A stretch of 64,000 nucleotides of DNA from positions 146,878,001-146,942,000 of the forward strand of contig OX597816.1 of assembly GCA_951406725.2 (NCBI GenBank). The letters are read 5' to 3'. Below, piece after piece: positions 10,085 through 40,127 of this stretch. This DNA comes from Octopus vulgaris. Lineage: Eukaryota. The position numbers and the translations under genes are program-made. Below the pieces are notes generated by a model that did no database searches, was not told the DNA's origin, and was given only the letters and a program-made list of their open reading frames with translations. How positions within the stretch are numbered: position 1 is the first letter of the stretch; each line of letters starts with the position of its first letter.

Positions 10085-10475
10085 TATTATGTCGTGGCAC
10101 TCTGTCGGTTACAGTGGCTAGGGTTCTAGTTTATGCGATCAACGGAACAGCCTGATCGCGAAATTAACGTGCAAGTAATTGAGCTCTCCACAGAGACGTG
10201 TACCCTGAACGTAGTTCTCGGGGAGATTCAGCGTGACACAGAATGTTACAAAGCTGGCCTTTTAAGATGCAGATGCAACAACAGAAACAGGAAGAAAGAG
10301 TGAGAGAAAGTTGTGGGGAAAATGTACATCAGGGTTCGCCTCCAACCCCTGCCGGAGCCTCGTGGAGATTTAGGTGTTTTCGGTTAATAAACACTAACAA
10401 CTCTCGGTGTGAGTATCGTACTACGATCCTACGACCGCAAATCCGCTGCCCTAACTGCTGGGCCATTGCGCCTCC
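10085..10475 (-). mobile_element. tRNA-derived SINE, family C
   Basis: Minus-strand head GGAGGCGCAATGGCCCAGCAGTTAGGGCAGCGGA is tRNA-like. Related fragments lie near 20040-20155, 42660-42770 and 62470-62720. Confidence 0.7.
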
Positions 10476-10530
10476 AGTATTATGTATACCTGTCATGTAT
10501 TTGTGTACGTCATTAATATATAAGTGCATG

Positions 10531-10574
<44 letters not shown>

Positions 10575-10734
10575 TGGTTCCTCCTTCAGTGAACAACCTG
10601 GCACGTTGGGCAATTGTTTTTGCTATGGATTTGGTCCGACCAAAATCCTGTTGGGAGATTTCGTACAGAGAACCTGAAAAGTCATGGCTTAAATTATCCT
10701 TGTCTTCCATTCAATTTTTACTTTTCATTCATGC

Positions 10735-10913
10735 TGGACTTAGCAGTATTTCGTCTGGTTTTACGTTCTGAGTTCAAATTCCACCGAGGTCGACTTTGCC
10801 TTTCATCCTTACGGGGTCGATGAATTAAGTGCCAGTTGCGTACTGGGATTGATCAAATCGATTGGCCCTCTCCAACCAAATTTCAGGCCTTGTGCTTATA
10901 GTAGAAAGGATTA
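10735..10913 (+). mobile_element. SINE family B copy (5' truncated)
   Basis: Matches 63035-63210. Confidence 0.8.
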
Positions 10914-10981
10914 ATTGTATTATTGTTTTTTCGTAATTTTATTTTTCACTATTTCTTTGTATCATTATTTTTATATTCCTA

Positions 10982-11390
10982 GGCGCAGGAGTGGCTGTGT
11001 GGTAAGTAGCTTGCTTACCAGCCACATGGTTCCGGGTTCAGTCCCACAGCGTGGCATCTTGGGCAAGTGTCTTCTACTATAGCCTCGGGCCGACCAAAGC
11101 CTTGTGAGTGGATTTGGTAGATGGAAACCGAAAGAAGCCCGTCGTATATATGTATATATATATATATGTGTGTGTGTATATTTGTGTGTCTGCCTTTGTT
11201 CCCCTAGCATTGCTTGACAACCGATGCTGGTGTGTTTATGTCCCCGTTACTTAGCGGTTCGGCAAAAGATACCAATAGAATAAGTACTGGGCTTACAAAG
11301 AATAAGTCCCGGGGTCGATTTGCTCGACTAAAGGCGGTGCTCCAGCATGGCCGCAGTCAAATAACTGATACAAGTAAAAGAGTAAAGAGA
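10982..11390 (+). mobile_element. tRNA-derived SINE, family A (near-complete)
   Basis: A box TGGCTGTGTGG, B box GGTTCAGTCCC, CORE-like CTTGGGCAAGTG, internal (TA)/(TG) tract and a GTAAAAGA-type tail. Several copies occur in the window. Confidence 0.85.
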
Positions 11391-12391
11391 TTACACACCA
11401 CACACAATGTCGCACGCGCACTCACATATACTCGCCCACACGTATTCACACACCACACATCATCGCGCGCGGACACACGTGGACACATGCTACAGACACA
11501 TCCACGCGCACATGCACACACGCCTGCGCGCGTATTCTCACACACACATACACTCATACACACATATACGTCCGCACACATAATACCCACACCCTGGGCT
11601 ACACCAAAGGCACCTACACACACTCCTTCTCACCCTTTCAAGCCAGAGTCACCCATATTCACACCTCCTGTCTGCCTTTGACCCATATTGACCCTCCCAA
11701 CTACGCACACATGCAAACGTGCATACAGACATAGGGCCACACCCACCCATTCACACATCCGTCACTATAGCTGCTGATCACTCAAACCGACATTAATACA
11801 CACGTATACAGATCCTACTACAGACAAAGTGTTAATATCATTTAAACATACACTACCAGACGCATGCACGCTACCACGCACATACACATACAGTCATTTG
11901 CGACCACACACACTAGCTGCCATACATACACACGCTACCACATATACACACACACATACAACACGCTGATACACTCACCACACGCTCTTACACACGCGGG
12001 AGCGCGCACACACGCTCATACAGGCCATTTTCGCATTTTCATCTTCCAGAAAGCAATTTCCCTTCATCTCTACTTCCGGTCACTTATTTCCAAAATATAA
12101 CCGCTCGTGACTGTTGGCGGTCTTCTTCCTCCTTCCTTTAGAGCATTCCTGTTTCTTCCTTTTTCAGAAGATCTATGCTCCAAACGTAAAACTTACACAC
12201 TTTTCCATCTCTGAGCATCTTATTAATACATTGCTTCTGTCGCATCCAAACGTTTTTGCCTTCTTCTCTGTAGTCTTTTGAATTGACTATATATATATAG
12301 AATGGTTGTATACTGTCAATCTAACACGACCATTCTATCGCCCCACCACCGTATGTGTCTCTACGAGAGATTTACAAATATAGTATTTCTG

Positions 12392-29930: not shown

Positions 29931-31261
29931 TATAATTCCTCTTCTCTTAAATATAGAACTGCAATATAAGTAGTAATACGCCCGAACAGAACCCGCCACA
30001 GTCCAAACATGTGACATTTTACATGAAATAATGGACAGGAAGTACGAATGCAATATTATAAAAATAACATCCTAAAAGTTTATACAAAATATATTAATCA
30101 TATTTACAAACTAGTAATACCGATGTAGTACAAGCTAGAAAGCTAAATGCACAAACATTAGTTCAGGCAAACAGATAGAAATTTCAATATAAATACCAAG
30201 TTCGTAAATTTCAGGTCTACCTTCTTTTTTCCCCTTAATCTAAGCACGGAAACACAGCGCTTTCTCGTTGACCAATCATACATTTACGTTGTAAATTTCA
30301 CGGCAACGACGTAAAAAACGTTAGTTAATAACAATAACATCTTATATAGAATTCCAGAAAACTTCATTATGAGTGAGATGCAAATTGCACAAAAGAAACC
30401 CAGTGGCGGTCGATGTGAAATTTATGTCTTAGTTAAATAACAAACAATTTTTTTATTAATCTGGGGATAACATCGAATATGACATCATTTTCTTAATGCC
30501 TTGCTTCTTAGTACGACACTCAGCAGCAACACATGATTCACACGTATTCATTTTGAATATCAGGCGGGAGAAGGTATGCAATAATAAAATTTAGAAACGT
30601 TAGTATTCCAAACAAAATATTAGACATGAGAAAATATCAAAGAAAGAGATTAAATCCCAGCAATTCCCTGTATGAAATGTGTGAGTGTCTGGAGAATATG
30701 TGTATATGTGGGTATGTGATTGTTTGTGTGTATGCGTGTTTGTGTGTTTGTGTGTGTAACCGCACACAACATTCGCATTATAAACACGTTAAGGATTGCC
30801 TGAGTAAAATCAGATACTAAATTTCATAGTTATAAATTCAGAGGATAAATCTTTTCGCATTTCCAATAATCAGACATCACTAACAACATCTGCGTTGATC
30901 TTAGGAAAATAAAACACCAGATAAATTAAGTCAAAATAAGATGAACCAAAGCCAATGAATATACACATTACCTTTAACATCAGCAAAACTATTTAGGATG
31001 CTTACATCATCACACCATTATCGATCACATCATTATGATCAATCAAAGGAATTTCAAAGTCATACAAATAAAATCAGACCCAGAAGCTAATATTAATCAT
31101 CGGTCAATTCTATGACTAATTTTGAGCATGTATACATAAATACATGTATATAAAACTTAGACTTAGATAAAACTTAGATATGTTTCGACCAGAGATTGGT
31201 CCAGGCCATGTCTAACTTAATAGCACCACCTGATAGGATTATTCGAATCCTGTTTAAGTCA

Positions 31262-31347
31262 AGTTTTGTTCAAGTAGTGAGTTCTTGTTGGGTGAGTTGT
31301 ATCCAGTTTTGTTCAAGTAGTGAGTTCTTGTTGGGTGAGTTGTATCC
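31262..31347. repeat. Perfect 43-bp tandem duplication at the ORF2 3' end
   Basis: agttttgttcaagtagtgagttcttgttgggtgagttgtatcc occurs at 31262-31304 and 31305-31347. Confidence 0.95.
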
Positions 31348-34278
31348 AATTATGGGTGGCTTGTCTGGTATTCTTTGAAGGAATCTATCCAGACTCTGTT
31401 TGAAGTTGATGGGATCCTTTTCCTCTTTGATCTCCCTCGGGACAATGTTAAATAGGGCAGGGCCTGTTGAGGAAAAGAAATTATGTTGCAGTGTACATGT
31501 ATGTTGTGATCTTGAATTTGGCAGCGGACGTATAGCCCGTGGTCCAAGTCTCGGATGAACCTTGAAGCTAATGTTTAGGTCGTTTGGGCAAAGTTGGCGG
31601 TATATTTTCCACATCGTACAAATGATGTACCGCTCACGGCGACGCTGGAGGGAGTAAAGTTTCAAGGCTTTAAGGCGATCCCAATAGTCGAGAGCAGCCA
31701 TGCCTTCAATTTGTTTAGTGAGAGCCCTCTGGGGTGACTCAATTCTGGAGATGTTTTGTCTTGTGTGAGGAGACCACAGTGGGCAGCAGTATTCAAGGTG
31801 TGGCCGTACAAAGGATGAAAAAAGTGGTATGATGACACCTTGTTCTCTGGACCGGAAAGTTCTTAAGATCCAGGAACTCATCCTACGAGCTGTATCGACC
31901 TTCTTGTTGATGTGTGCACTCCAACTGAGATCGTCATCAACAATTACACCCAGGTCTCTGATATTGTTAGAGGCTGTGAGCGGTTCCCCTGAAGGAAGAG
32001 AGTATGGTTGTTTTAGTGAGGAATTTCTTCCAAAATGCATCAGCTCAAATTTTCCCTCATTCAGTTGCATTTTGTTTCTGTCTGCCCATTGACTCACAGC
32101 ATATAGGTCAGACTGGAGTTGAGTTCGGTCTGCTTCTTCATTGACGATTTGCTGGAGCTTAGTGTCATCAGCGAATATTTTCACTTTGCAGTGATGTACG
32201 ACACTGGAAAGGTCGTTTACATAAATTATGAAGAGTAGCGGACCCAAAACAGTTCCCTGGGGAACACCGCTGGTGACTTTTGCTGGGTTTGAGTGGACTC
32301 CATCAACTACAACATGTTGTGTTCTATTCGCTAGGAAATACTGAATCCAGTGTAGAACTTTTCCACGGATTCCAACATTTGCCAATTTTGAGAGTAGGAT
32401 GTTATGGTCTACCCTGTCGAACGCTTTACTGAAGTCAAGGTATATGACGTCAGAGTTCGAACCTGTTCCCAAGGCTTTGAGTACATCTTCAATGTGGTGT
32501 AAGAGCTGTGTTAGACAGTCCCTGCCACAGCGAAAGCCATGTTGATTTGAATTTAGGAGTTTGTGGGTCTCCAGGAAGTCAGCTATCCTTGATCTTAACA
32601 CTCTTTCAAACACTTTAATGATGTGGGAGGTGAGTGAGATTGGGCGATAGTTGACTGCGAGGGATCTGTTTCCCTGTTTGAAAACCGGGATGACCGACTG
32701 GGATAGAAACTTTTTCGGTATATAACCTGCGTCTAACGAGTTTCTCCAGAGGTTGGTCAGAGGGACTGCAAGTTGATATCTACATTCCTTCAGGAGACTG
32801 GCGGGAAATCTATCAGGGCCTACAGCGGAGTAATGTTTGACCTCATTTATTGCTGCTACGATGTCGGTGGCAGTGAAGGATATGTCTGCGATTTTGTGTT
32901 GGGAGTCAGCTTCGTTCGTTTCCCTCACATCAATATCAGTGGGAACACTGAAGACAGAGCAATATTGTTTCTGCAGTATTTCTGCCATTTCTTTAGCATC
33001 GTGTTGGGGAATGCCGTTTTCATCAATCAATGGCCCAATAGGTGAGACAGTGGTTCTATGCTTATTTGCATAAGAATAGAACACTTTTGGGTTCTGTTTG
33101 ATGTTTTTGATTACCCATTGTTCCTCCACAGCTCTTTGATTTTCAATGGAGGTTTTCATGTTAGTCTGCAGATGAAGTTTTTCCAGCTCTAGTCTTTTCA
33201 TTGTTGTTGAATGTGGATGTTGCGTGTGGGAATATTTTAATTGGTTGATTTTTTTGTTGAGTCTTTTGATGCGCCTGATGAGTGTTTTTTTCTTTTTAGG
33301 GAGCCGGTTTCTGTTTGTGTTAGTAGATTTCTTGGGAGCGTGTTTAGAGCATGTGTCGGTGACAATGGTTTCAAAGTGCTGCCACGCGGTCTCAATATGA
33401 GGGGAATTGAGAGTAAAAGACCAGTCGATGGAAGACAGATCCTTTCTGATTGTTCTCCAGTCCGCTTTGTGGAAATTTATGTTGTCAAATGGGTGCCATG
33501 GAGTGGGATTGGCTGGTTTGGTTTTTATACGTCGGGAATTAAGATTGCAAAGTACCATGTCGTGGTCTGAGAGGAGAGTTTTTTCGACTGAAATGCTGTG
33601 AACGTAGCTAGAGTGATTGGTCAGTACCAGATCCAAGATCGTTTTATTCTGTCTCGTTGGTTCAAGCACTAGCTGAGTCAGGAAATACTCATCCATCAGA
33701 TTAAAGAGCAGTTCTGCTGCTGCCCTATCTGATGTAGAGCACTTGCCTAACTTCGGAGTATTTGTGGGCCAGTTCACATGAGGGAGGTTAAAATCACCCA
33801 TCACTATTATGTTTCCGGAGTGGTACTTCCGAAGGAAGGACTTGACTTTGCTAAGGCACTCTTCAAAGTACTTTAGAGGTGCCTGGGGAGGCCTGTAAAG
33901 ACCAACAATGGTTATGTCCTTGGCTTTGTTGTATACTGATACCGATTCACAGTAGCCATTGGAAAATGTGTCCTTGGCATCAAGTGAAAAGGAGTCATGG
34001 ATAAAGATGGCTGTCCCACCCTTATTTCGGTCTGTGCGATCCGCACGAACAATGGTGAAATCTTTTATTTTCACCTCTGCGTCCATATGGGTGTTGTTCA
34101 GGTGAGTCTCGGTAAGGATAAAGAAAGGGAAGCAATGTGCCATTTCGGCAAGCCAACTCTCTATATATGGGATCTTCCATTTTTGGGCAATAATTGATGG
34201 GTTGATGCCACGTACATTTAACAGGAATGTCGAGGTAAGGGAAGTTGGTAATGGGTGAGTGGTCCTTGTGATTTGCAT
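31270..34278 (-). CDS. LINE ORF2: APE endonuclease + reverse transcriptase (1002 aa)
   Basis: APE motifs LNVRG, LTETHL, GLYRPP, MGDFNLP, LDLVLTN, SDHD. RT motifs NYRPISLTS, QHGFR, YLDFSKAFDRVDH, GVPQGTVLGPLLF, FADDTK, RDLGV. CR1/L2-like C-terminal motifs RPHLEYCCPLWSP and LYSLQRRRER. Confidence 0.97.
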   Translation of the reverse strand: MQITRTTHPLPTSLTSTFLLNVRGINPSIIAQKWKIPYIESWLAEMAHCFPFFILTETHLNNTHMDAEVKIKDFTIVRADRTDRNKGGTAIFIHDSFSLDAKDTFSNGYCESVSVYNKAKDITIVGLYRPPQAPLKYFEECLSKVKSFLRKYHSGNIIVMGDFNLPHVNWPTNTPKLGKCSTSDRAAAELLFNLMDEYFLTQLVLEPTRQNKTILDLVLTNHSSYVHSISVEKTLLSDHDMVLCNLNSRRIKTKPANPTPWHPFDNINFHKADWRTIRKDLSSIDWSFTLNSPHIETAWQHFETIVTDTCSKHAPKKSTNTNRNRLPKKKKTLIRRIKRLNKKINQLKYSHTQHPHSTTMKRLELEKLHLQTNMKTSIENQRAVEEQWVIKNIKQNPKVFYSYANKHRTTVSPIGPLIDENGIPQHDAKEMAEILQKQYCSVFSVPTDIDVRETNEADSQHKIADISFTATDIVAAINEVKHYSAVGPDRFPASLLKECRYQLAVPLTNLWRNSLDAGYIPKKFLSQSVIPVFKQGNRSLAVNYRPISLTSHIIKVFERVLRSRIADFLETHKLLNSNQHGFRCGRDCLTQLLHHIEDVLKALGTGSNSDVIYLDFSKAFDRVDHNILLSKLANVGIRGKVLHWIQYFLANRTQHVVVDGVHSNPAKVTSGVPQGTVLGPLLFIIYVNDLSSVVHHCKVKIFADDTKLQQIVNEEADRTQLQSDLYAVSQWADRNKMQLNEGKFELMHFGRNSSLKQPYSLPSGEPLTASNNIRDLGVIVDDDLSWSAHINKKVDTARRMSSWILRTFRSREQGVIIPLFSSFVRPHLEYCCPLWSPHTRQNISRIESPQRALTKQIEGMAALDYWDRLKALKLYSLQRRRERYIICTMWKIYRQLCPNDLNISFKVHPRLGPRAIRPLPNSRSQHTCTLQHNFFSSTGPALFNIVPREIKEEKDPINFKQSLDRFLQRIPDKPPIIGYNSPNKNSLLEQNWIQLTQQELTT

Positions 34279-35489
34279 AGATGGTTGGTGATGGCTCGCT
34301 GGATCTCCTGGCTTAGGTCGGCCTTCATATTTTCCAGGTATGTCAGTAAAAAAGAGTTACTTGTTTGGTTTGCCACTTGGTCAGAGGATACATATTTCAA
34401 GTTGGCGTTATTTGGTGTTTTTTCCTGGTTCTGTCTACGTAGTTTGATTGTAGGAGGGGAAACGTGGTTGTATGTTGTTCTTGTTGTTGTCCTAGATTTC
34501 CTCTGTTCCTGTTCATATCTATTCTGTGATCGTTTTGTGCCCTTCAGATGGTGGTTGTTGCATTCTGGGTTCAGGCACATCCTTTGTGAGACAGAAGTTT
34601 GGCACAGTTTAGGATGGAATAAGGTGCATTCATTGCCTCTTATGCATCCGTATTTAGGGTCAGAACCATAGATTCTGTATTTAGGACAGTATTTGGGGTG
34701 GAGGTGGGGGCAATTTTTTCCTGTTATACCGTATGGACAGGTGCCCATAGCAAGTCTACGACATAAGGTCGGGTGGGGAAAAGCACAGCGTCCATTTTTG
34801 TTTGTGCCGCTGGGGCCAAATCTACAAGTGCCTTTAGAATAGTAACGGCAGGGGGTTTTATTTGGTTGTAGTAGTGGTTTTTCTATTTTGGCAGTAGTAG
34901 TAGTGGTGGTGGTGGTGGTGGTGTTAGAAGCAGCTTGTTGATTTTGTGATGGTGGGTTCTGGCTTGCCAGTATGTGGTCAAATCTGCAGCTGCCTTGAGA
35001 GTAGTAGTGGCAGATGGTTTTACGCGGATGTAGTAGTGATTTTCCTATTGTGGCAGTAGTGGGGAGTTGTAGCAGCATTGGAACTTGACTAGTGGTAGTA
35101 TTAGAGTGTTGTTGTTGTTGTTTTTGTTGCTGTAGCGAAGGTGAGACTTGACTTGGTTCATCAGGTGCTGTTGTCAATGGAAGTAGGTCAGTTGATTGTT
35201 GCTGTTGAAGTGACCACTGACCTGTTGGGATTTGGTCATTTGTTGTACTGGATTCGTTGGCAAGAATGGATTTTAGTGTAGCCATGGGCGCGTGAAAAAT
35301 AGGGAATATCCTAACAATTTCTTTTAATTTATTTTCTATCTGTTTTACAGATCTGTGAAAGGATTTTTTCGTTAAATCCTCAGTTATTTTGCTATAAACA
35401 TTAGCTTCGTTGTGATGGATGAACCAAGCGTTAATCATTGCAGTAATTTCATTTTCAACCCAGCGGCGTTTTTGAAAATTATTGGCCAT
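34218..35489 (-). CDS. LINE ORF1 (423 aa): N-terminal Myb/SANT-like (trihelix) domain, Q/T-rich linker, four complete and one truncated CCCH zinc fingers
   Basis: N-terminus RRWVENEITAMINAW...VYSKITEDL...RSVKQIENKLKEI fits the trihelix pattern by eye. Finger spacings are C-x7-C-x12-C-x3-H, C-x7-C-x8-C-x3-H, C-x13-C-x5-C-x3-H and C-x8-C-x4-C-x3-H. It lies directly upstream of and overlaps ORF2. Confidence 0.88.
   Translation of the reverse strand: MANNFQKRRWVENEITAMINAWFIHHNEANVYSKITEDLTKKSFHRSVKQIENKLKEIVRIFPIFHAPMATLKSILANESSTTNDQIPTGQWSLQQQQSTDLLPLTTAPDEPSQVSPSLQQQKQQQQHSNTTTSQVPMLLQLPTTATIGKSLLHPRKTICHYYSQGSCRFDHILASQNPPSQNQQAASNTTTTTTTTTTAKIEKPLLQPNKTPCRYYSKGTCRFGPSGTNKNGRCAFPHPTLCRRLAMGTCPYGITGKNCPHLHPKYCPKYRIYGSDPKYGCIRGNECTLFHPKLCQTSVSQRMCLNPECNNHHLKGTKRSQNRYEQEQRKSRTTTRTTYNHVSPPTIKLRRQNQEKTPNNANLKYVSSDQVANQTSNSFLLTYLENMKADLSQEIQRAITNHLCKSQGPLTHYQLPLPRHSC
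34307..34359 (-). promoter_or_regulatory. Candidate -1 programmed ribosomal frameshift signal joining ORF1 to ORF2
   Basis: Minus strand reads TAA CTC TTT TTT A in the ORF2 frame. The heptamer T TTT TTA (34353-34347) is phased on ORF1 codons and is followed by an 8-nt spacer and a CCTGG...CCAGG stem. The -1 frame has no stop from here into ORF2. Confidence 0.6.
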
Positions 35490-36036
35490 ATTCAGTGGGG
35501 TAGTGTTGTGTAATATCTATATGTATGTATGTGTATGCGTGTGTATGTATGTGTACACCAGTTATTGATGGCTTGATGTAAAATAGTGAACTCAGTAAAT
35601 AGTGAATACACCGTTGGAAAGTTTGTGTCGATATACTCGGAAATTCGTGGCTTGTGTGTGAGAGTTCAGTGTAATTAGTACAATCTAATTAGTACAATCG
35701 GGATGAGCGGTGTGTTTGATACAGACCAAGAAAAAGAATTGTACTCACGGGACTAGTTTTAGAACTAGTCTTGGGTTTAGTATTTAGTTTTGGGTTGTTC
35801 CTCTTTCTTCAGGTTGTATATAGATTTGTATAAATTTATCCTCCGATGGTAGTAAAAGAGTAGTATAGTAGGATTGTAGAGTTCAAAAGTCTTGAGATTA
35901 AAGACAAGGAGAGATTATGTTAGCTTGAGTTGAGTTGAGTTGAGTTAAATTGAGTTGAAAAATGCTTCTTTGGTTAGTTACTGACGGGAGCTATAAAAAG
36001 TACGTCTTGTCACGACGACTGCCTGCACACCTATCA

Positions 36037-36102
<66 letters not shown>

Positions 36103-37400: not shown

Positions 37401-39069
37401 TAAGCCAGATTTTACTCTACATTTGATACAGAAAACAGTGGTATTCCTAATAGATATCATTGTTCAGTATCCATGCATAAATGTTAGCTCTAAGTGTATT
37501 TTCTGATCCATTCATTTTCAATTTCATTTGAATGTTATTTTAGCAACTTAAGCATGTTTCAGAGATCATCGGTCATAATTACTGTATCAATTATCAGGAA
37601 GTTTGAACGATGTGGGAACGGAAATTAAATGAAGCATGTTTCCTCTCATTGTTACATGAAATAATATTGATAGTCTTGCTTTTGGGAGACAAATAGAATA
37701 ATAAAGAAACATACTGTAATTGAAGAGGCTCCTGGATAAATACTGGAATTTATTTTCTTGCGTAATGAATTGCAAATTGACTCCCACAAGCATTTCAAAT
37801 GGAAGCCTAAACCTATATACCAAATACGGTACGGACTTTTTTCTGGTTTTCATCGAAATCCACTGAACAATTTATTGAAATCCTATTAAATGTAACATAG
37901 TTACAACGGTGCATTTAGGAGCAAAAACAGTCAAGCAGAAAGATCCCACCAGTATTTGAACGATATGTATTTTTTTGATCATGAAATATTAAATACATAG
38001 GTAATATTGAAATAGTATTTCGATATTTATGTTTGAAGTGATTTTAAATACAATGACGTGTTCATTCTATCAGTCTTCATATTGTTTATCATTTAATAGA
38101 GTTTAAGTCAAATAACGTATTTTACTCGCATTTATAACACATATCACATCTAATGCGTGAAAACAAATCGGCACTATTTAGGATTAATTATGAATAATAA
38201 CGATGTACATATATATAGTGAAAGGATATGGTGCCGTTATAATCAAGGTGGGTTTATGGAAATAATGATGTACGGTAATTATCCCGTAAATATACTACAG
38301 ATGAAGATTACTTTAATAATGGGTACGAAGAATTATGCTCGGTTTAAATGAGAAAGATGTAAAAAATAAAATAAAAGAAGTGATTCTATTAATGCTTATT
38401 AAGTCAAAATCTCGACGGCAAAGTGTCTGATTATATATCTCATTAAATAAATACAATTAAACTATGAAGAATGGAAACGTTTTCGTTAAGACTTCCAAAC
38501 ATTTAGTCCGAAGACAATCATTAGTGTTGAACTGTTATCCTTTATACCACTACCAGTACCAACACCAACCAACCTTACAGATTAATATTGATCAAATAGG
38601 ATAATTAAATATTTCTTTATTGCTGTCCAAATTGATAGCACATCCAGAAGTTGCAAAGTTACACCGTATTTTAGAAAGCCGGTTCGTGTAGACAGAAATA
38701 TTCACCACAAGATCAATAAAAATATTTCAATCCTAAGATAAGAATGCAATACTAATGTTTCATCAGCGACTACCAATAATGATTTTAGTCTGCCAAACCT
38801 GTCCCTTCGCAGTGTGCCCTATAGCTAAATTATTTCAGTTGTATTATGATTCACCTCTAATTTTCATAGTTTTCAGGTGATAAGAAATATGTCTCTTAAA
38901 TGATAATTCGTTACCCTTCTACAATTAGATTTCTTGGCGAAGAAATTCATCTTAAGCACAGCAAGTTCACAAAAGATTGATTAACTGCATAATCTTTCTC
39001 TAAATTAGAAACTACAACTATGTGTGTCTTTCTTCATTGCCTATTCTCGATATTCAAAGACTGGAAAAC

Positions 39070-39465
39070 TAATATTGGTTTGAAATTTTGGCACAAGGCC
39101 AGCAATTTGGTGAAAAGAATAAATCGATTACATCGACCCCAGTCCTCGACTGATACTTGTTTTATCGACCCCGAAAAAATGAAAGGAATTTGCACACAGA
39201 GCGAAAAGATGGACGAAATGCAGTCAAGAATTTTGCCCGGCGTTTTAAAAATTCTGCGATCTCGCCACCCGAATTGGAAAGGTAATGTTGCTTTCACTTT
39301 TGGCACACGGTCAGGAAGTTTGAGAAGTAGAGTACAGTATTTCACTGGTATTATTTCATCGACCCGGAAAGGATTAAAGGTGAAGTAGACCTCGGTGGAA
39401 TTTGAAATCAGAACGAGATGACGGACGAATTTCAGTTAAGCATTCTGCCCGGTGTTTTAACGATA
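39070..39465 (-). mobile_element. Two tandem diverged SINE family B copies
   Basis: atcgaccc...gaaag and gacctcggtggaatttgaaatcagaacg motifs in reverse orientation. Confidence 0.75.
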
Positions 39466-40127
39466 TTTGTAATGTATAAAATACCCCACCACCTTATATT
39501 TATAAAGTAACAAAAACGAAACGTTGTGCATGATTTAGCGATAAAGTCACCACAACGAGAGGATACGAATGAGTTCAGAGTATTTCGTCAATGCTATGAA
39601 TGTTTCGTATTAACTAGAATAAATAATAATAATTTAAGAAAAAGAAAATAAAGAATAGCACAGGTATTAGATATTCTAAACTTAGCGGAGGTATAAATAT
39701 ACTTCTTACAAGTTAAACGAAAAAGAAAACTGTAAGCCAGCGGATGCAAACTAGAGAAAAAAGGGAAATATCTATAAAACTAGATGTGGTCTGTATTCAC
39801 GGAGTACACTATTCACATGATGTCTAAAATCGTAGTACAAAACGCCTATAGCATAACAGCGGTAAGACATTTAGTATTCGTTAATTTTTCGAAAAACAAT
39901 TGAGAGAGTGCTGCTGCGCTCTAAAGTATCCAAGTAATACTCAGTGCTCTGTGAGCCACGTTTAAGCATCTTAATGCCAGGTTTGCTACTTCCGTTGCAT
40001 GGCTTCGCTCCTCATTTGATATAACTTCGTTTCACTTATAGCGAAATATTACCGGAAATAAAATAAAAATTGTTTTTGAATTTACACGTATATATACAAA
40101 TAAACAAAAACACAAACACGCATGCAT

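Follow-up and report, generated by a model that had tools for sequence, protein, structure and literature searches.

How the ORF2 protein is produced in LINEs with two open reading frames, and what role accessory domains of ORF1 such as PHD play, are open questions. Both are raised by a locus in the Octopus vulgaris assembly GCA_951406725.2 (contig OX597816.1, positions 146,878,001 to 146,942,000 of the forward strand). This whole stretch of 64,000 nucleotides is referred to as the window, and its first letter is position 1. According to an earlier sequence-only reading, the window contains a LINE ORF1 with a SANT/trihelix-like N-terminus, a low-complexity Q/T linker, four C-C-C-H fingers and a basic tail. 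It was regarded as a distinct ORF1 architecture, joining RNA packaging to DNA or chromatin targeting, that would be tethered to the RT if a frameshift between the frames is real, and profile searches and structure prediction with Foldseek were named as checks. The features of the element are listed in Table 1. Statements on published work refer to the accessible parts of the papers cited by PMC number.

Table 1. Features of the LINE copy in the window
Feature	Position	Strand	Remarks
Full-length CR1-clade LINE copy (family A)	31152..36025	-	~4.9 kb, both ORFs open; limits from the 5' start common to other full-length copies and the end of the 3' tail
(TA)n tract 5' of the element	36039..36098	no strand	
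5' untranslated region	35490..36025	-	Conserved upstream of the ORF1 AUG among full-length copies
ORF1, 423 aa	34218..35489	-	Open frame
Myb/SANT-like domain (trihelix-type, PF13837), residues about 6-66	35292..35474	-	
Q/T-rich low-complexity linker	34875..35234	-	Fast evolving
Degenerate partial duplicate of finger 1 (fifth finger)	34974..35012	-	C-x7-C-x3-H
CCCH finger 1	34773..34850	-	x7-x12-x3; low model confidence
Conserved three-finger CCCH core (fingers 2-4)	34524..34763	-	Ends H-x-K-G-T-x-R
Basic stretch after the fingers	34410..34547	-	12 K/R vs 3 D/E in 46 residues
Slippery heptamer T TTT TTA (Ser-Phe-Leu)	34347..34353	-	Predicted -1 frameshift site
Conserved amphipathic ORF1p helix downstream of the slip site	34275..34346	-	Missing from the predicted fusion
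ORF2 open frame, 1028 codons	31270..34356	-	-1 relative to ORF1; intact, overlaps ORF1
In-frame AUG of ORF2	34278	-	
ORF2 APE endonuclease motif I Asn	34218-34216	-	
ORF2 RT	32655-31942	-	
3' microsatellite tail, ATCTAAGT(T)n units	31152..31179	-	

Identity of the element

At least 119 matches to the ORF1 were counted in the 2.8-Gb genome. The genomic copies that were fetched are colinear with the window across ORF1 and ORF2 and 93-99.6% identical to it. The ORF1 thus belongs to a family that was active recently, designated family A. In a Pfam scan of ORF2, the APE endonuclease (Exo_endo_phos_2, E = 1.4e-16) and the RT (RVT_1, E = 2.7e-31) are both present. LTRs are absent, the 3' tail is a microsatellite, and 5'-truncated copies are dispersed in the genome; these are the features of a LINE. 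The RT is near-identical by eye to the cluster O.sinensis_156_LINE in the alignment of PMC10294476, and this cluster is classed there in the Jockey superfamily, CR1 clade (Table S7). We assign the element to the CR1 clade, a placement made via the near-identical catalogued RT and not via a tree with named references. Proto2 and the 'unknown I clade' were rejected as its identity according to the same published classification. The octopus brain LINE RTE-2_OV has a single ORF and is a different element. Contigs of four presumed RNA runs cover the element with a strong 3' bias and are given no weight here.

Domain organization of ORF1

It is virtually certain that this LINE ORF1 combines a Myb/SANT-like domain, a Q/T linker and CCCH fingers, as the sequence-only reading had it. 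Residues 86-205 of the linker contain 21 Q and 21 T among 120 residues, and the basic tail is present as described (Table 1). None of RRM, CCHC knuckle, transposase-22, PHD and esterase was found in the window ORF1 by Pfam at E<=10. Outside the assigned domains, only low-complexity sequence is found.

With PF13837 (cut-off 27 bits), the whole window protein scores 23.6 bits, below the cut-off, and residues 1-89 alone score 27.6 bits, above it. The corresponding domain of a second Myb family of the same genome, family B, scores 27.3 bits, and the scores rise to 42.1 bits for one older family A copy and up to 42.9 bits on older copies. The best match in the ESM Atlas is Myb_DNA-bind_4 at 0.90, with 168 shared features. 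The dN/dS of the domain is 0.16-0.17 against two older copies and is the lowest among five ORF1 segments; by this measure, the domain is under purifying selection. It also aligns with the host domains L053 and L054 of the same genome (pairwise BLAST, E = 4e-6). At the core Trp positions of GT-1, W10 is kept and Y32 and L55 differ, so that Trp is present at one of the three; the two host domains likewise have Y and M at the latter positions. The recognition-helix residues are diverged. The single-sequence model of the domain has a pLDDT of 67, and Foldseek/VIA gave no informative match with it. Among solved structures, a match to GT-1 (E = 2e-12) was obtained only when the profile included the host Myb domains. 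The profile of LINE-derived Myb domains alone matched no Myb structure, and when solved structures were searched by sequence, the domain by itself and the LINE-only profile retrieved only coiled-coil noise. No other Myb-bearing ORF1 was found outside this genome in a collection that is mostly prokaryotic and metagenomic, hence a weak negative.

The four C-C-C-H motifs are located at 34850-34773, 34763-34698, 34688-34614 and 34604-34548 (minus strand). Their spacings are x7-x12-x3, x7-x8-x3, x13-x5-x3 and x8-x4-x3, and none is canonical (C-x7/8-C-x5-C-x3-H). The zf-CCCH score is 16.6 bits on the whole ORF1 and 16.6-19 bits overall, below the cut-off of 20.5 bits. The profile searches bore out the Myb-like domain taken alone and left the fingers short of the threshold. 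Among the relatives, P0102 passes zf-CCCH_4. No Pfam family covering the three-finger core was found. Finger 1, by which the array comes to four, is found in family A and P0003 and missing from most relatives; we regard it as a local addition.

Fingers 2-4 form the conserved part, with 24 invariant columns across 7 families. The profile built from the 7 families retrieved 1,565 protein clusters (50% identity) at E<=1e-10, and the Cys3-His ligands are invariant or nearly so in 132 sequences. In the model built on the 132 sequences, the pLDDT exceeds 90 across the core, whereas finger 1 stays below 60. When the core model was searched with Foldseek, CCCH RNA-processing proteins or complexes, including CPSF30, ZAP, MBNL, Nab2 and the spliceosome, accounted for 24 of the 25 matches listed; all have E>=0.14 and are not significant. 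The best structural match of the core (Z 3.2) is not significant either. Thus, the structural check points almost uniformly to CCCH proteins at non-significant E-values for the core and gave no clear match for the Myb-like domain. The core profile matches the MBNL1 fingers with E = 0.0044. In all seven distinct metagenome DNA contexts with enough sequence, the core is located upstream of the APE-RT frame or its start, and no match was found in viral contigs. Judging from these profile and model comparisons, the fingers likely bind the RNA of the element.

Heads of the lineage and insertion sites

Among the best 150 relatives, 76 have at least 200 aa in front of the core, and a PHD-like pattern precedes the core in 74 of these 76. 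Of 53 long relatives that were scanned with Pfam, 18 have a confirmed PHD (E<=1e-3), and UCH, OTU and Rho_N occur as occasional extra heads. The Myb profile matches none of 155 other proteins. The same genome holds the PHD-type family C and the Myb-type family B, in which the Myb domain is combined with two separate copies of the last finger. In an ORF2 tree of nine rows, which contains no named references, A and B are sister families (support 100/100); their ORF2 sequences are 65% identical, whereas the identity of A/B to C is only 38%. Since the PHD-like head is found in 74/76 and Myb in 0/155, and since A and B are sisters, PHD plus the CCCH core is taken as the standard form and Myb as a derived replacement, seen once here in two sister families.

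The copies for the junction analysis were picked by protein match, not by their flanks, and copies without a recognisable 3' end were left out of the 3' counts (3/21 in A, 3/24 in B and 1/22 in C). Alternating A/T of at least 6 nt is present at the 3' junction in 12/18 copies of A, 15/21 of B and 4/21 of C, with a background of 5.6% (Fisher versus C: P = 0.004 for A and 0.002 for B). Family C itself is slightly above the background (4/21, P = 0.03), and at the 8-nt threshold the difference between A and C is not significant (P = 0.09). Near the 5' junction, alternating A/T of at least 8 nt is present in 10/21 copies of A, 18/24 of B and 2/19 of C, with a background of 6.8%; among the 19 of family C, four junctions are probably internal, and the count without them would be 2/15. 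The 3' flank of the window element starts with ATATA, its 5' side likewise carries a TA tract, and comparison of both flanks gave no clear target-site duplication. These results indicate that the (TA)n bias of the Myb families is real, strongest in B and incomplete in A.

The correlation makes the Myb domain a candidate cause of this targeting, a role that we consider possible but on the lower side of even. It is only a candidate because A and B are one lineage that also differs from C in the endonuclease and the tail. For the (TA)n link, the comparison amounts to one evolutionary contrast. The chance falls only a little short of even that the frameshift and the RNA-binding fingers are real but that (TA)n is chosen by the endonuclease or through base pairing between AT repeats and the 3' tail; the Myb domain would then bind a protein, chromatin in general or the promoter of the element itself. 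The ORF2 identities given above fit this explanation, as do the diverged recognition helix and the tail itself: 17 or more 3' junctions per Myb family start with AT directly after a tail unit that itself contains AT. The explanation fits less well with the TA-richness of both flanks, and the tail of family C also ends with AT yet seldom meets long tracts. The purifying selection on the Myb domain also argues against it, as does the case of R2, whose RT protein recognizes its target by means of a zinc-finger/Myb head at the N-terminus (PMC12503042).

Published records

According to the accessible text of PMC4120745, the known ORF1 types contain RRM, CCHC, transposase-22, PHD or esterase, and CCCH, Myb and SANT gave 0 matches in that part of its survey of 448 Jockey/CR1/L2 ORF1s. 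No CCCH-type LINE ORF1, Myb-headed CR1 ORF1 or conserved LINE ORF1-ORF2 shift site was found by full-text searches of the literature, outside which Repbase and Dfam lie, so that prior annotation there is possible. It is nevertheless unlikely that the architecture and the frameshift are already recorded in these databases for a named CR1 subgroup. The RT already figures in a catalogue as a CR1 cluster, the lineage is abundant, and the PHD-only subtypes IIIA and V of PMC4120745, as described in the available text, could hold such elements with the fingers overlooked. Such a record is, however, at odds with the silence of the survey, as far as accessible, on CCCH and Myb, with the full-text literature searches and with the missing Pfam family over the core. 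The ORF1 type and the recoding signal described below appear to be undescribed and widespread. The claim of a distinct architecture thus holds in so far as the combination is absent from the surveyed part of PMC4120745; the conserved unit, however, is the three-finger core with the slippery site, and the Myb domain is local.

The ORF1-ORF2 junction

The ORF1 frame extends 110 bases past the end of the region described in the sequence-only reading, to a Phe-Leu pair and a helix (34353-34275) with the slippery site. Phe380-Leu381 was invariant in the first protein alignment, which was made before the DNA of the relatives was seen. Phe-Leu followed by an amphipathic helix is present after the fingers in 127/131 relatives, compared with 24% of shuffled tails; this count took tails of at least 60 aa and left out 13 shorter tails and 6/150 without a regex match. 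The residue before Phe-Leu has no T-ending codon in 1/127 relatives, compared with 26/83 other Phe-Leu pairs. Ser, Asp or Asn ahead of a helix is also an N-cap preference, and therefore the codon test at the protein level is confounded.

At the DNA level, nine families were compared, namely the window family, B, C and six metagenome families, with ORF2 identities of 25-65%. L040, in which ORF1 is broken before Phe-Leu, and the near-duplicates L031, L035 and L036 were left out. Phe-Leu is encoded by T TTT TTA (U UUU UUA) in 8/9 families, and the ninth has G GAT TTT (G GAU UUU). Among 43 Phe-Leu pairs within ORF2 that served as controls, none uses this encoding. Both heptamers are shift sites described in the available text of PMC5009743, U UUU UUA in HIV and G GAU UUU in pea enation mosaic virus. 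Counting G GAT TTT, an X XXY YYZ heptamer with ORF2 in the -1 frame is present in 9/9 families. From the site to endonuclease motif I, the -1 frame runs without a stop for 45-112 codons, with a chance of 0.016 to 1.6e-5 per family; since the nine families are relatives, multiplying these chances exaggerates the case. In the same frame upstream, 6-12% of codons are stops, and the frame closes within 12 codons upstream of the site in 7/9 families. These comparisons lend strong support to the tethering proposed before, in the form of a predicted fusion: gag-pol-style -1 ribosomal frameshifting very probably joins ORF1 to ORF2.

A separate start of translation on ORF2 is improbable, either at an AUG belonging to it (in the window family, 34278) or, as in L1, by reinitiation close to where ORF1 stops; ORF1p would then never be joined to the RT, and Phe-Leu would be retained for the sake of the helix. 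In human L1, ORF2 is translated by AUG-independent reinitiation. In the window family, the AUG is in frame 25 codons past the site and ahead of the endonuclease, and therefore this family taken alone can do without a slip; an upstream AUG is also present in L034. The ORF1 stop is located 1-25 codons before motif I in all nine families, and a conserved 3' stimulator was not found (hairpins with folding z<-2 in 3/9 families; z 0.29 in the window), which would both suit separate translation. However, no AUG is present between the site and motif I in 8/9 families or anywhere before motif I in 7/9, so that a usable AUG is missing in the latter. Separate translation also leaves unexplained the codon choice at Phe-Leu and the open -1 frame through the overlap.

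The six T of the heptamer are kept in most young copies (20/21 in A, 17/24 in B and 21/22 in C), which would be expected if the RNA that is copied has not slipped. In family B, indels form a hot spot at the T run, which is shortened in 6/23 copies as compared with 0-2/23 at seven other A/T runs. A homopolymer assembly error is possible at such a run. Fused copies with ORF1 and ORF2 in frame exist (L010, L072 and L073); that they make up an active sub-lineage of their own is not supported, as they do not group in one clade and L072 and L073 are not the nearest relatives of each other. Cis-preference is a general rule; if it holds here, the retention of six T in most copies favours the ribosome over the polymerase as the slipping machine. 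That the T run works by slippage of RNA polymerase II or RT, with fused transcripts or copies supplying the RT, is very improbable: the hot spot, the fused copies and the slippage of HIV RT at the same heptamer (PMC5009743, accessible part) agree with it, but L072 and L073 are not closest to each other, six T would not be expected in most young copies if slipped RNA made the RT, and the ninth family with G GAT TTT has no long run.

Proposed mechanism

Taking the frameshift as the preferred reading, the overall picture is probable, with its last part the most tentative: an intact CR1 LINE ORF1 with a slip at U UUU UUA and RNA-binding fingers, in which a Myb domain has replaced PHD and may steer insertion to (TA)n. 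The usual product of translation would be ORF1p (423 aa), whose C-terminal helix is predicted to mediate self-association. In a smaller share of cases, the ribosome would slip by -1 at 34353-34347 and produce a Myb-CCCH-EN-RT fusion of 1406 aa without the terminal helix. The slip would set a high ratio of ORF1p to RT, as in retroviral Gag-Pol. The CCCH core and the basic tail would package or coat the RNA in place of RRM/CCHC modules. The N-terminal module, PHD in most families and Myb here, is proposed to be exchangeable as a targeting head because it is carried on the enzyme itself, and the Myb head would bias target-primed reverse transcription towards TA microsatellites. A wider reading, in which a large undescribed invertebrate CR1 sub-lineage has a Gag-Pol-like frameshift fusion, a new CCCH packaging module and a swappable targeting head at the ORF1 N-terminus, and a captured host trihelix-Myb has retargeted two of its families to (TA)n, is held only tentatively and is rather doubtful as a whole.

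If the mechanism is true, one large LINE group would provide a clear example of gag-pol-style recoding among non-LTR elements. The free swapping of ORF1 heads would also be explained, since the heads become part of the integrating enzyme. The natural swap from PHD to Myb coincides with a change of insertion site, and young copies of both types are present in one genome. This is relevant to target choice, to microsatellite-rich genomes and to the retargeting of retrotransposon proteins.

Comparison with known systems

The closest known elements are CR1 LINEs with PHD-containing ORF1s (types IIIA, IIIB and V in the scheme of Khazina and Weichenrieder, which PMC4120745 extends in its accessible text). 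An ORF2 with APE and RT, a CR1 RT, a microsatellite 3' tail and 5'-truncated copies are common to both, and most relatives of this ORF1 bear an N-terminal PHD-like finger. In contrast to them, the three-finger CCCH core is present here instead of RRM, CCHC or esterase, Myb-like domains replace PHD in A and B, and the ORFs overlap at a conserved slippery site. The junction resembles that of HIV-1 and of retroviral and LTR gag-pol elements, with the identical heptamer U UUU UUA, the enzyme in the -1 frame and, upstream, zinc fingers that bind nucleic acid or, here, probably do so. However, the element is non-LTR, no protease was detected in the Pfam scan, and folding revealed no conserved 3' structure. 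As non-LTR cases of frameshifting, the accessible part of PMC5009743 names only HeT-A, where the shift is inside gag, and TART, whose mechanism is given as unknown.

The CCCH arrays of CPSF30, MBNL, ZAP and Nab2 are similar in the C-C-C-H ligands, in the H-P linkers and in weak profile and fold matches, whereas the array here is a compact three-finger unit with non-canonical spacings and a best Z of 3.2. The head resembles trihelix/Myb_DNA-bind_4 domains (GT-1 and the animal MSANTD-type) by the PF13837 match and the alignment with L053 and L054. It differs from them in a shortened loop after helix 1 and in the core Trp positions, and its DNA binding is putative. R2 also has a Myb and zinc-finger head on the RT polypeptide, with target- and RNA-binding roles according to the accessible text of PMC12503042. 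R2, however, has a single ORF, C2H2-type fingers, an RLE and an rDNA target, whereas a trihelix-type Myb and CCCH fingers are joined here to APE-RT only via the predicted frameshift. Insertion into simple repeats is shared with the microsatellite-targeting elements of R1, Tx1, HERO and Togen (PMC4640811); in the available text of that paper, the specificity belongs to the early-branched, Tx1 and R1 groups, not to CR1. For the capture of a domain, a Copia element that has acquired a methyl-CpG-binding domain (PMC6673714, accessible part) provides an analogy.

Sister family and frame fusion

The sister of the window's CR1-clade LINE in the same genome, family B, is very young, with a mean pairwise difference of 0.6%, and identical copies are found among its members. 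Nearly all of these copies are surrounded by (TA)n. In the family B ORF1, the Myb-like head is followed by the last CCCH finger alone, which is present in two separated copies. A perfect hairpin of 6 bp directly follows the predicted -1 frameshift site, and the spacer is absent.

In the genomic copies L010/L091, L017, L072 and L073, ORF1 and ORF2 are joined in one frame by an indel in the T run. The fused frames span 1417-1468 codons, or part thereof.

Positions of family B copies and of short repeats
Feature	Copies	Position
Family B copies	L071-L074, L103-L122	example G000:C22:22884500-22891500
Dispersed short repeats, probable SINE-like fragments, with plentiful TA, TAGA and CA microsatellites		window 39000-39600 and 10200-11700

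In the window copy, the 3' end of ORF2 carries a short duplication/replacement at 31268-31312, which alters the final ORF2 residues relative to the other copies. No further long coding frame besides those of the LINE was found in the window.

Host genes and protein relatives

PF13837 (trihelix) domains are present in the host genes L051-L055, among which L053/L054 are nearest to the LINE head in pattern and are candidate kin of the Myb-head donor.

Among proteins related through the CCCH core, many of P0008-P0157, together with the loci L035, L039 and L042, have a conserved helical region N-terminal to the PHD finger. This region ends roughly in I-x-x-K/R-I-Q/E-N/S-L-L-P-x-x-C, and Pfam gives no match to it. 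A conserved short N-terminal peptide, MG(I/V)SxxQ(Y/W)R, is common to several relatives. Additional N-terminal modules precede the PHD/CCCH part in P0056, P0065 and P0084; the modules in this set are a ubiquitin C-terminal hydrolase (E=4.6e-38), an OTU-like protease and a Rho_N-like domain. P0102 starts with a motif similar to a 2A-like NPGP peptide.
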